In this document: one piece after another, positions 3,335 to 62,828 of the stretch
Layout: every line of letters begins with the position of its first letter
Numbering within the stretch: the stretch's first letter is position 1
IMG/VR virus record: IMGVR_UViG_3300025131_000006
DNA: 64,000 bases
Source: a virus
Strand: one strand, 5' to 3'
The notes under the pieces: model-generated
Told to the model about the DNA's origin: nothing
Databases searched by the model: none
Seen by the model: only the letters and a program-made list of their open reading frames with translations
Made by a program: the position numbers and the translations under genes

Positions 3335-3349
3335 GTTCAGTCACTAAAC
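3335..3349. repeat. 15-bp palindrome site 2
   Basis: GTTCAGTCACTAAAC, intergenic. Confidence 0.9.
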
Positions 3350-27180: not shown

Positions 27181-27253
27181 GGGTGTGTAGCTGAATGGGT
27201 TAGCGGGAGTCTTTAAAACTCTGTCCAAGTGGGTTCAATTCCCACCATGCCCG
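27181..27253 (+). tRNA. suppressor tRNA, anticodon TTA (reads UAA)
   Basis: GGGTGTG/CATGCCC acceptor, GGAGT-CTTTAAA-ACTCT anticodon arm, GTGGG-TTCAATT-CCCAC T arm. Confidence 0.8.
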
Positions 27254-27627: not shown

Positions 27628-27725
27628 GGATGGGTAGCTTATTTGGATAAAGCACTCTGTTTCTTTCAAACCGCCCGTTTCAAGGCCACAGAGAGATGTA
27701 GGTTCGACTCCTGCCCCATTCACCA
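27628..27725 (+). ncRNA. tRNA-like RNA with 29-nt anticodon loop
   Basis: GGATGGG/CCCATTC acceptor + ACCA; normal D and T arms; CTCTG/CAGAG stem encloses 29 nt. Confidence 0.7.
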
Positions 27726-28314: not shown

Positions 28315-28382
28315 GGGATCATAGATCGGGAGATCGCTCGCAGATACGGCGGGAGGTGCAGGTTCGACTCCTGCTGGTTCCA
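28315..28382 (+). ncRNA. tRNA-like RNA with non-canonical anticodon loop
   Basis: GGGATCA/TGGTTCC acceptor, short D arm, CTCGC-AGATACG-GCGGG (no U33), GCAGG-TTCGACT-CCTGC. Confidence 0.6.
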
Positions 28383-28437
28383 CCCTTCTTGGTGCTTTTA
28401 CTCCTCCTGTTCCTGGGGTGATAACATCGAGAAGCTT

Positions 28438-29634: not shown

Positions 29635-30051
29635 GGGGGTGAACAGGTTTTCGATCATCCAAGTACGCTCATAGATAGCACGCCGAGGATTCAGGTGGCC
29701 TCGTAAAAAACCTGAAAACCAAGCAACTGCCAACAGCAATTACTACGCCGACAAGGTTTGGAGCTTCGGAGTCGCTTGCGACGTCGCTGCACCCTGCCAC
29801 GTTAGCAACCAAGAAGTCGCCCTCTTCGCGTAAGAGGTCGCCCCTGCGTCACCTTTCCTGTGGGTGATGTGGGGAACTAAGCAGGATAGCGGTGGAGCAG
29901 TGGTCATGCCTGCCTGTGAAAAAAGACCGTTCGCCGGGACGTCCTTTTCTCTTTGTGGATGCCCGGATGAACTGAGAGCAAGGAGATAAGCGTGTAGAAG
30001 TCTGGAGTTGTCTTGAGGTGAGACGCGGGTTCGATTCCCGCCACCTCCACC
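29635..30051 (+). ncRNA. ssrA: tmRNA
   Basis: GGGGGTG/CACCTCC-A acceptor with G3.U70, GCGGG-TTCGATT-CCCGC T arm, tag ORF starting GCC AAC (AN..) at 29729. Confidence 0.9.
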
Positions 30052-30330
30052 GGCACTGTGAGCGTTGGCTTGCTGTTTGGGTTCAAAGGCTCAGGCAGTG
30101 ACCCACGCTGGAACTTGCGACAAAATTCATTTACTTTGACCCTGAACGTTTTTTTGTTGCGAGGTGTGTCTGAAATATGACCACAGTGCTTGTTACTTGT
30201 GCGGGAACACATGGGTGTTCAAGGGGTCCGAAAGACCCTGGCCTCGTTGCAAGGTCAATACTCGTCGTGAAGAGCGGCGATAGTCCATGTAAGAGCATCG
30301 TGTGCAACCGCGATGTCGTTCCCGCTCCCT

Positions 30331-30400
30331 GTGGGTGTAGCTCAGTTGGTAGAGCGAGGGTCGCTCCCTGTCGGTGGTTCGAATCCACCTGCCCACACCA
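30331..30400 (+). ncRNA. tRNA-like RNA with truncated anticodon arm
   Basis: Canonical acceptor, D and T arms plus CCA; anticodon arm only AGGG-TCGCT-CCCT. Confidence 0.75.
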
Positions 30401-32405: not shown

Positions 32406-32499
32406 TTTCTCTTCTTGACGGGTGATGTGATCGGGGTTACTCATTAAGTATCGCCCAGAACGCGAGAGGAAAAGAACGCCAGAAGAGGAAGCTAAGGCC

Positions 32500-32874
32500 A
32501 TGAAGAGACCAGACACGTAACTTCACCAGAAAGAATTCCCGCCACCTCACAGGGACGCCGTATACGTCATTGTGCGGCAAGATCTCCTCCCTGCCCAAGT
32601 AGCTGTCCAGGCGTGCCACGCAGTTTTGGAGGCTACTCGTCAATTTGTCTCTTCCGAGACACCCCACCCGAACATCATTGTGTGCCAGGTTCCCACCGAT
32701 CAAGATCTTCTTGCGTGGAGCTTGGCGTGTGATCAGGCTTGTATCCGTATTGCGGAGTTCCGTGAGCCGGATATTGGCGATCAGCTAACAGCGATCGCCA
32801 CAGAAGTGGTGCCCCACAAGCACCGTCGTTTTTTTAAAAAGCTGTCTTTGTACCGACCGACGTTCAGTCACTGA
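32500..32874 (+). CDS. PTH2-like peptidyl-tRNA hydrolase with in-frame TAA at codon 7
   Basis: YVIVRQDL..AQVAVQACHA..FREPDIGDQLTAIA..KKLSL motifs; ATG 32500 with SD; TAA 32518-32520 in frame. Confidence 0.75.
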
Positions 32875-32876
32875 AC
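32862..32876. repeat. 15-bp palindrome site 11
   Basis: GTTCAGTCACTGAAC, supplies the PTH2 TGA stop. Confidence 0.9.
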
Positions 32877-32960: not shown

Positions 32961-33581
32961 ATGAGAAGACCAGAGATTGACACGAAGACCCAAATCGAAA
33001 GCACACCGAGCTTTGAGCAGCCCACACAGGAAGTGGGTGACGAGATCGCCCACCAGGGAACGTGGGGGTGGCATGCCCTCTCGCAGGTGGACTTCCGCAA
33101 GCTCAAGTACGTTCATAAGATGCTGTGGGAGGCGTATTTATTGTGGCGAAGGGGGAAGATTTGCCCGAAGATTGTGCCGTTCGTTACCTACTTCAATGAT
33201 TGGAGAGAGGTGTGCGAGCATGTGGGGAACATGCATGCACCAAAGGCTCGCATGCGGCAGTATGTGGGCAAGGGCATGCCCATTGCGAAAGGCAATAAGG
33301 GCAGCGGAGAGGACTTCACAGGGGCGTGGTTCGAATTGTCGGGGGTGAAGGATACTCGTGTTCATGACGCCGAGGGGCGTCGCTTGAGCGGAGGGTGGGA
33401 GGTGTTCTTTAGGGATGCATGGAAGATTGTGGAGGCGTTGCGGTGGGCAAGGGTTCCGCATGACACACCGACGGACGCGGTGACGTTCGTTCCGCCGCAC
33501 CGGGAGGTGTGGGAGGCGTTGTATGAGAAGCTTACGAGTCCAGCGGCTTACTGTGGTGAATCCACTGTGCAACCCGAATAG
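32961..33581 (+). CDS. hypothetical protein
   Basis: 206 aa; AGGAG SD. Confidence 0.6.
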   Translation: MRRPEIDTKTQIESTPSFEQPTQEVGDEIAHQGTWGWHALSQVDFRKLKYVHKMLWEAYLLWRRGKICPKIVPFVTYFNDWREVCEHVGNMHAPKARMRQYVGKGMPIAKGNKGSGEDFTGAWFELSGVKDTRVHDAEGRRLSGGWEVFFRDAWKIVEALRWARVPHDTPTDAVTFVPPHREVWEALYEKLTSPAAYCGESTVQPE

Positions 33582-34768: not shown

Positions 34769-34952
34769 GGAGAGGGAGAGAACGGAGCCCAAGGACTGTC
34801 GCGTCTTGCTTGTGCGCTGCGGTGCCGAGGCACCAACTAAGCCATTGAAGCGTCATTGCCGTTGGCTTGGGCTCCGTTCTCTCCCTCTCCTGTCGCTTGT
34901 AATGTCTTTCTCTCCGTTCTATTTTGCGGTGCACTCACCAAGGGCAGGGAGT
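34769..34952 (-). repeat. leader cassette copy 1 (promoter-like box + 25-bp stem enclosing a 72-nt conserved core)
   Basis: Near-identical to 36670-36857; perfect inverted repeat 34769-34793/34866-34890. Confidence 0.9.
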
Positions 34953-36288: not shown

Positions 36289-36291
36289 TAA

Positions 36292-36669: not shown

Positions 36670-36857
36670 GGTGAAGGAGAGAACGGAGCCCAAGGACTGT
36701 CACCGTCTTGCTTGTGCGCTGCGGTACCGAGGTACCAACTAAGCCATTGAAGCGTCATGGTCGTTGGCTTGGGCTCCGTTCTGTCTTTCACCCGTTGTCG
36801 CTTGTAATGTCTTTCTCCTCGTTCTATTTTGAGGTGCACTCACCAAGGGCAGGGAGT
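36670..36857 (-). repeat. leader cassette copy 2
   Basis: Homologous to 34769-34952, with compensatory stem changes. Confidence 0.9.
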
Positions 36858-61988: not shown

Positions 61989-62828
61989 GTGGAGAACAAT
62001 ATGCCATTCCGAGACAGTGCTTTTGGGGTTGATTGGGATTTTGGTTTGGCCGACGCGATGGTGGGCGAGCGCGGCGATGTTGTTGTCCACGAGATCGGAG
62101 TCCGGTGCCCATGTGTGCGGGTACACCCCAGTGAGGGCTCTGTCGGCCAGCCCAAGGCAAACTGTAAGCGGTGCCGTGGTAGATCTATTTTTTACGTCGA
62201 GCCGGTGCGTCTCGTGGGTTTGGTGACGAGCATGAGTGCGAATGCGCTGTGGTCGTCAGTGGGTTGGGTGTCGCCGGGAGACATGTTGTTCTCGCCAGGG
62301 GCTCGTGCTCGCCGCATGAGCAACGGAGATCGGATCACAGCGACGGCTCCAATGCCTTTCGAGGGGCAAGTGATCTTGCGCGGGGTGGACTCCGTCTTTT
62401 CTCCACGCACAGACGATCTTTTGGCGAATGAGGATCTCTTGTATTGGGAGTCCGGTTATCGCCAGGCAGTTTGGTTGGAAGACGAGGATGACAATGTATA
62501 CCGTGCAGGCGAGTATGTATTGGACGGTCGCCGAATCAAGTGGACCGATGGATGTGGCCCGGCAGTCGGGAAAAAGTATGGTGTGAAGTACGAGGCATTT
62601 TTTGAATACATCGTGTGGATTCCCCCAGCCGAGCGTTGGGACATGGCCCGCGAGTTGGGCCAACGTGTGATGTTGCGACGCTCTGTGGTGGAGGTTAATC
62701 CAGGGATGCACCCAATTATTGAGCCGTGGGCAGAGCGGGTGGAGGGGAATCCTTTCCAGGGGTACGAGAACCCCTATTCGTTGTATACTGATGAGCCATT
62801 GTCCAAGCCCACGAAACCGCAGCGGTAG
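61989..62828 (+). CDS. putative neck/head-closure protein
   Basis: RCPC..CKRCRG..Y and GDRIT motifs resemble Twort-like neck proteins. Confidence 0.68.
   Translation: MENNMPFRDSAFGVDWDFGLADAMVGERGDVVVHEIGVRCPCVRVHPSEGSVGQPKANCKRCRGRSIFYVEPVRLVGLVTSMSANALWSSVGWVSPGDMLFSPGARARRMSNGDRITATAPMPFEGQVILRGVDSVFSPRTDDLLANEDLLYWESGYRQAVWLEDEDDNVYRAGEYVLDGRRIKWTDGCGPAVGKKYGVKYEAFFEYIVWIPPAERWDMARELGQRVMLRRSVVEVNPGMHPIIEPWAERVEGNPFQGYENPYSLYTDEPLSKPTKPQR

Follow-up and report, generated by a model that had tools for sequence, protein, structure and literature searches.

A gene for a putative peptidyl-tRNA hydrolase of the PTH2 fold, encoded by a virus of the IMG/VR collection, carries an in-frame UAA as its seventh codon, and comparison with homologous loci makes it very probable that the full-length hydrolase is produced by suppressor-dependent read-through of this UAA by a cognate phage tRNA. 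An early or internal stop is a conserved feature of the gene family, and its identity follows the anticodon of a suppressor tRNA encoded in the same locus. The gene is located in a stretch of 64,000 nucleotides (the window; all positions without further designation refer to it), which is part of a 104,653-bp virus contig with an estimated completeness of about 65%.

Within the window, a Shine-Dalgarno-like sequence (GAGGAAG, 32485..32491, plus strand) is positioned 8-10 nt before an ATG at 32500, and AGGAG-type sites at comparable spacing precede other genes of this phage. The ATG opens a leader of six codons (Met-Lys-Arg-Pro-Asp-Thr; ATG AAG AGA CCA GAC ACG; 32500..32517, plus strand), which is followed in frame by the TAA at codon 7 (32518..32520, plus strand), referred to here as the gate codon. 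This TAA matches a UUA anticodon, as do the gates in the loci L046 and L069/L071. From the TAA, 117 open codons continue in the same frame to a TGA stop (32872-32874). The first of these codons form an in-frame linker that contains no start codon (32521..32556, plus strand) and that is modeled with a pLDDT of about 77 over residues 1-10, with predicted secondary structure being absent before residue 13. The linker leads into the PTH2-fold domain (32557..32871, plus strand; AlphaFold (AF2) model, Foldseek and family profile), whose first strand begins at 32557. Upon re-reading of the sequence, the description in the earlier note of a Shine-Dalgarno-preceded ATG, a TAA at codon 7 and a frame that stays open beyond it proved accurate.

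Gene callers place the start of the gene at a GTG (32572..32574, plus strand), the sole canonical start codon past the TAA; ATG, GTG and TTG are absent between the two. The GTG encodes residue 18 of the modeled protein and falls within strand 1 (residues 13-19), so that initiation at this codon would delete nearly all of the strand. The only purine-rich stretch preceding it, AGGGA, is located 17 nt upstream and hence does not provide a usable Shine-Dalgarno site. Homology to relatives starts 4-8 codons 5' of the GTG (tblastn, query residues 10-14), and adding the residues encoded 5' of the GTG likewise improves the match to the Pfam PTH2 family. GTG 32572 is probably merely a Val codon of strand 1 (YVIVR). 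The earlier note had also pointed out that the GTG lacks a Shine-Dalgarno site and cuts the conserved strand, with no start codon between the TAA and that strand, which is borne out by both sequence and model.

The hydrolase is a divergent relative of the archaeal and eukaryotic Pth2 enzymes. The window protein scores 19.8 bits against Pfam PTH2 (PF01981), which is below the cut-off of 23, while the fused homologue of phage XacN1 reaches 25.3 bits. The AF2 model of the window protein has a pLDDT of 94.9, and the best Foldseek matches are archaeal Pth2 and human Bit1 (2zv3, 1q7s, 3erj and 1xty; TM 0.70-0.74); all of the top 13 matches are PTH2 or Bit1 structures (TM 0.59-0.74). Correspondingly, a family profile built from 102 of 847 representatives matched solved PTH2 structures (24bt_A, E=8.3e-8; 2zv3_A, E=5.6e-5). 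An alignment of the family shows that the R-x-D-L and Q..HA motifs as well as an invariant Asp and a Thr are retained, of which R-x-D-L, Q..HA and the Asp are common to these enzymes and the archaeal/eukaryotic Pth2. Different from the latter, the window sequence remains under the Pfam cut-off, and the family forms a subfamily of its own, for which an exhaustive HMMER search (E<=0.001) yielded no fewer than 847 cluster representatives. In addition, solved PTH2 chains have a Lys at the fourth position upstream of the invariant Gln in Q..HA, where the family consensus has Gln, and the chemistry may accordingly differ from that of PTH2. Taken together, fold and profile suggest a putative peptidyl-tRNA hydrolase activity, with a chemistry that is likely related to PTH2. 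A canonical PTH2 with a Gly-Lys motif is encoded a few kb away in several carriers (L010:2155, L041:637-1068, L045:1202-1630 and L081:448); in these, the gated protein is thus a second, divergent paralogue and not the sole PTH2. Another weak family match in the window (62497-62703) was dismissed as spurious, as it runs out of frame inside a 279-residue ORF.

To survey the gate among homologues, we fetched loci independently of gene calls with a 12-sequence alignment as query. The loci comprised 32 from IMG/VR, 80 from metagenomes, 7 from species genomes and 9 from GenBank phages, and dereplication at 80% identity resulted in 93 homologue clusters. An early or internal in-frame stop was present in 74 of these clusters, whereas nine were ambiguous and ten had no stop, several of the latter being situated at contig ends. 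The layout for which the earlier note had proposed to align homologues, a Shine-Dalgarno site and ATG from which a few codons lead to an in-frame stop ahead of the conserved strand, is therefore a recurrent one, and a recurrence of this extent is far from what would be expected by chance. The stops occur at two recurrent positions, either in the leader, which mostly spans 2-5 codons from the start among the leader-gated clusters, or in the loop just before strand 2, and some genes have both. Even where the hydrolase carries an HD-like N-terminal fusion (RAS14, XacN1, L091 and L099), the stop is found at codon 3-8 of the whole ORF, which speaks in favor of a regulatory site close to the start and against randomly tolerated stops. 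About a tenth of the clusters have no stop at all with a suppressor still nearby, and the gate is thus not obligatory.

The gate is not restricted to one stop codon or one type of genome. The marine contig L134 has a leader nearly identical to that of the window, ending in CCA GAC ACG, which is followed by TAG. A UAG-gated hydrolase together with a partner gene (see below) and a tRNA-CUA also occurs in Planctomycetota assemblies (L128-L130, L133). In L133:9900-11200, which derives from a complete Rubripirellula chromosome (OZ244207.1), the module lies between nrdAB and a Ser/Thr kinase, and no prophage genes are evident near it. A chromosomal amber suppressor in a bacterium would be notable.

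Suppressor tRNAs are abundant in the loci. Among the 271 tRNAs of all loci, 88 are stop-reading or have an 8-nt anticodon loop (CUA, 76; UUA, 5; UCA, 3; 8-nt loop with UUCA, 4). A suppressor tRNA is present in 42 of the 52 clusters that have at least 2.5 kb on both flanks; it is often the sole tRNA in 20 kb and often located 150-500 nt from the gene on the same strand. The earlier note had suggested to compare stop type with suppressor anticodon, and in all 54 clusters showing both, the two agree without a single mismatch (UAG/CUA, 48; UAA/UUA, 3; UGA/UCA, 2; UGAA/UUCA, 1). The UAA/UUA clusters are those of the window, L046 and L069/L071, and UGA/UCA is found in L027 and L088. If pairing were random, agreement in every cluster would have a probability of about 6e-10 (calculated by hand), a figure that is inflated by the relatedness of the loci. 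In a quick and weakly resolved tree, L071 (UAA/UUA) is nested in a well-supported UAG/CUA clade with plainly homologous tRNAs, and the other rare gate types are scattered over the tree. These findings indicate that codon and anticodon have switched together several times.

The four-base case is represented by two contigs from different samples (L021/L022). Here, a tRNA with an 8-nt anticodon loop and the anticodon UUCA (L021:9859-9932) is followed after 2 nt by AGGAGG, an ATG, five codons and then TGAA. The frame continues into the conserved domain only if TGAA is read as a four-base codon, which yields a complete ORF of 118 residues. Further 8-nt anticodon loops were observed in L033:1537-1609 (UUCA), L076, L023:7369-7442 and L039:9267-9343.

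With regard to transcription, a -10-like motif, CTATAATG, immediately precedes the suppressor tRNA in L074 and L103 and is positioned between tRNA and gene in L071, in each case about 180-240 nt before the hydrolase domain. The pattern suggests that tRNA and gated gene are co-transcribed in most of the clade that comprises these three loci. A promoter scan around the hydrolase gene of the window returned nothing.

In the window, the suppressor is a tRNA with the anticodon UUA (27181..27253, plus strand; ARAGORN, and Rfam tRNA with 52.2 bits), which folds into a cloverleaf with a 7-nt anticodon loop and is not adjacent to the hydrolase gene but encoded 5.3 kb from it. Comparison of the suppressor tRNAs with the remaining tRNAs of the loci did not lead to a usable isotype assignment. 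A full-length tmRNA is encoded at 29635-30052 (Rfam, 132.7 bits), so that both the ochre suppressor and the tmRNA named in the earlier note are real. That note had proposed that Pth2 is made only upon UAA read-through, either via the phage suppressor or when termination is impaired, and that it forms a translation-rescue circuit with the tmRNA. The route via the suppressor is supported by the match of stop and anticodon and by the conservation of the gate; the rescue circuit is unsupported, as a nearby tmRNA occurs only in the window and L025 among the loci. The tRNA-Thr(CGU) of the phage (28514-28587) reads ACG, the codon directly before the gate. Other tRNAs of the window comprise an unusually long tRNA-Arg(UCU) of 98 nt (27628-27725, ARAGORN), which may contain an insertion or intron, a tRNA called as Tyr with the anticodon AUA (28315-28384, ARAGORN), and an extra tRNA detected by Rfam (30331-30397) that is absent from the ARAGORN list.

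The sequence context of the stop is also distinctive. Among the 66 leader-gated clusters, the stop is followed by G in 40 and by A in 24, amounting to a purine in 64 of the 66; C follows it in 2, and T was never observed. As genetic studies in E. coli have shown that a purine after the stop favors suppression while T favors termination, the context looks selected for read-through. The residue directly before the stop is Thr in 25 of the 66 clusters, encoded by ACG in 14, and the residue two before the stop is Phe or Met in 48. The window is atypical in this respect, with a C after the stop and a leader that is, with six codons, longer than usual.

Several other explanations for the in-frame stop have to be considered. 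Phages with a recoded genetic code are known (10.1101/2021.08.26.457843), and a phage that encodes a tRNA(UUA) could use TAA as a sense codon throughout, in which case the hydrolase gene would not be special. However, the 57 long ORFs of the window contig end in TAA (14), TAG (25) and TGA (18). The coding density under code 11 is already 0.90 in the window, and that of the loci is about 0.8-0.93 under the standard code; reading the relevant stop as sense increased it no more than reading control stops in the same way. Nor was another ORF with a Shine-Dalgarno site, a short leader and TAA found in the 105-kb contig, which is about 65% complete; only chance look-alikes without the Shine-Dalgarno-ATG arrangement were found. 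A plus-strand ORF pair split by a TAA at 36289 was rejected as a gated gene, as it overlies minus-strand genes. The carrier loci are not globally recoded, the window comes out negative in the test for alternatively coded genomes, and genome-wide recoding is an extremely improbable explanation of the gate. Suppression must be partial, since a strong UUA suppressor would read the 14 ORF ends in TAA and, by wobble, the 25 in TAG. Equally improbable is that the gene is a pseudogene or that the TAA arose from an error in assembly. Either would be compatible with a lone in-frame stop on a contig of metagenomic origin, but the feature recurs in most clusters, including finished genomes of cultured phages, and the remaining ORF is intact and confidently modeled.

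A working enzyme of 100 residues might also be produced from GTG 32572 (or ATT 32569), with ATG-TAA acting as a mini-ORF or coupling device. The GTG being the only canonical start after the TAA would fit this idea, as would the fact that the corresponding codon is taken as the start in about a tenth of the homologues in databases. However, in all three of such truncated calls that we traced back to the DNA, a Shine-Dalgarno site and a start turned out to be followed by 2-8 codons and an in-frame stop, after which the frame continues into the conserved strand. Initiation at the GTG would in addition sacrifice strand 1 and lack a Shine-Dalgarno site, and it leaves unexplained why the leader is always in frame and why the stop tracks the anticodon. 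We therefore consider a downstream start very improbable. Very improbable, too, is a prfB-like sensing of weak termination by the stop, which near-cognate host tRNAs would pass when release factors are limiting, with no need for a phage tRNA. The early position of the stop would be in line with such sensing, as termination on very short peptides is slow, as known from minigenes, and the C that follows the stop in the window represents a weak termination context in E. coli. This mechanism, however, leaves unexplained why a cognate suppressor is nearly always adjacent to the gene, why codon and anticodon have switched jointly and why a four-base gate exists.

Suppressor-dependent read-through would operate as follows. 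Translation would start at ATG 32500, and the ribosome would reach the UAA after six codons. Release factors would end translation at this point to give a hexapeptide, unless the phage tRNA(UUA) decodes the UAA, which would allow the ribosome to continue in frame and to produce the PTH2-fold hydrolase of 124 residues. The amount of hydrolase would report how successfully the suppressor tRNA competes with the release factors, and tRNA and gated gene would together constitute an AND gate or a coherent feed-forward arrangement.

As to the role of the hydrolase, we tentatively propose that it acts on the ester-linked suppressor tRNA, in its aminoacyl or peptidyl form, and that the module thereby sets or sustains the level of suppression. 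Hydrolysis of the suppressor ester in such a feedback or recycling loop would explain why, of all genes, it is always that of an enzyme acting on tRNA which is gated. Somewhat doubtful, but conceivable, is that the tRNA simply keeps the hydrolase tightly locked or timed, comparable to an engineered feed-forward design (PMC7969014), and that the enzyme has other tRNA substrates. The ungated members with a suppressor nearby fit somewhat better with a supporting role than with a purely inhibitory one. An extended version, which we regard as rather unlikely in its entirety, is that tRNA, hydrolase and partner represent a mobile, self-contained circuit in which the hydrolase cleaves the suppressor ester and thus acts as a homeostat for read-through, retuned to UAG, UAA, UGA or a four-base codon and present in Planctomycetota chromosomes as well.

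The partner of the hydrolase is encoded directly downstream. In the window, this position is taken by an ORF at 32961..33581 (plus strand), a probable divergent member of the partner family as judged from pairwise similarity (E=5e-6 and 4e-4). Partners of 115-210 residues directly follow the hydrolase gene in 20 loci (e.g. L129:10420-10824) and have an N-terminal motif with a conserved Trp-Gly and Lys-Leu-Lys. The partner is modeled with a pLDDT of 93, and searches against Pfam, PHROG, PDB sequences, the PDB by Foldseek, and Atlas gave no match. Prediction of a complex between hydrolase and partner reached a score of 0.19, compared to a mark of 0.32, a value that speaks neither for nor against an interaction. 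In seven other loci, an HD-like protein occurs in the place of the partner, and the same domain is fused to the hydrolase in RAS14 and XacN1; the fused domain has no Pfam match at E<=0.01.

The module shares features with several known systems. In the bar minigenes of phage lambda, a Shine-Dalgarno site and a start are separated from the stop by one or two codons only; they are functionally linked to Pth and act by sequestering tRNA. The Shine-Dalgarno-start-stop layout and the link to Pth are similar, but the bar minigenes end at the stop, whereas the frame described here runs on into the hydrolase, and a tRNA matching the stop is encoded along with it. In prfB, encoding RF2, an early in-frame stop (UGA) likewise senses the competition over how a stop is read. 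However, the escape in prfB is a +1 frameshift, and the factor being sensed is the prfB product itself, while a dedicated tRNA is used here, feedback by the product would be a hypothesis, and a change of frame occurs only in L021/L022. Phages recoded to code 15 or 4 also need a phage suppressor tRNA for genes with in-frame stops, and recoding of stops has been proposed to time expression in these phages; the 'code change module' described for them consists of tRNA, synthetase and release factor, with a hydrolase being unmentioned (Borges et al., 10.1101/2021.08.26.457843). Unlike recoded phages, the carriers of the gated gene keep the standard code and target one gene family, with the stop at codons 2-14 or in one loop, and they use UAA and a four-base codon besides UAG and UGA. 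A further counterpart is an engineered feed-forward loop in which a suppressor tRNA and an amber-bearing gene are co-expressed, such that the output needs both, and which provides a tight off state (PMC7969014). This loop is synthetic, while the present module occurs naturally, is widespread and involves a single enzyme family. A literature search revealed no publication in which PTH2 is connected with suppressor tRNAs and in-frame stops.

The gated gene is also present in cultured phages, where it has been missed or misannotated. It is not annotated in Serratia phage BF (tRNA(CUA) 3.5 kb downstream) and truncated in the annotation of Cronobacter phage GAP32 (annotated Sup-tRNA (CUA), 3.1 kb downstream). 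Salmonella phage Arash has it as a 50-residue fragment, with a tRNA(CUA) about 1.3 kb downstream (ARAGORN) that is annotated as tRNA-Phe. In Acinetobacter phage ME3, it is annotated as hypothetical protein ME3_195 with its start placed too far downstream, and the tRNA(CUA) lies about 0.5 kb upstream. The gene of Stenotrophomonas phage RAS14 is truncated by a GTG start that cuts the N-terminal domain, that of Xanthomonas phage XacN1 has been assigned an ATG immediately behind the gate as its start, and the unannotated record of the huge-phage genome LR756511 has the same layout; no tRNA(CUA) was found in the 3.3 kb examined in any of the three. Mycobacteriophage Myrna has a tRNA(CUA) 130 nt after the gene, and its gate is ambiguous, with a start-stop pair directly before the GTG start. 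For XacN1, which has two CUA tRNA genes, targets of amber read-through had been sought and none found (PMC5852040), and the announcement of the Stenotrophomonas phage Summit likewise reports no read-through target for its suppressor tRNA (PMC9022506).

Many standard-code phages carry suppressor tRNAs without a known target, and the hydrolase gene represents a conserved, co-located and covarying target for them. It was missed earlier as gene callers truncate the gene, skip it or apply code 15. Among public family members, some are translated with TAG=Q and others are truncated at an internal Val, Leu or Met of strand 1, which introduces an artefactual Gln and false N-termini into family alignments built from databases. 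The Gln at the gate position of database homologues was for this reason rejected as evidence that Gln is inserted; the entries P0013 and P0018 (loci L134 and L135) translate through the gate only with TAG=Q under code-15 calling. The annotation error is systematic across the family. The module would be a natural counterpart to engineered amber-suppression gates and likely includes a natural pair of four-base codon and tRNA. As several tractable phage-host pairs carry it, the biology of phage suppressor tRNAs is directly testable.

Two repeated elements of the window were observed in addition. A palindromic element based on CAGTSACTRAAC occurs in 35 copies (both strands counted) compared to 0.86 expected, mostly at gene boundaries. 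One copy (32862-32876) overlaps the TGA that terminates the hydrolase gene; the remaining sites, about 18 in number, include 3335-3349, 14810-24, 24253-67, 28677-91, 41922-36 and 58793-807. This element is probably a phage-specific operator, promoter or terminator. Near-identical stretches are also found at about 34800-34850 and 36700-36750, at the ends of two minus-strand gene blocks, where they appear as repeated peptide tails in translations of plus-strand ORFs; they may represent a repeated regulatory or terminator element.
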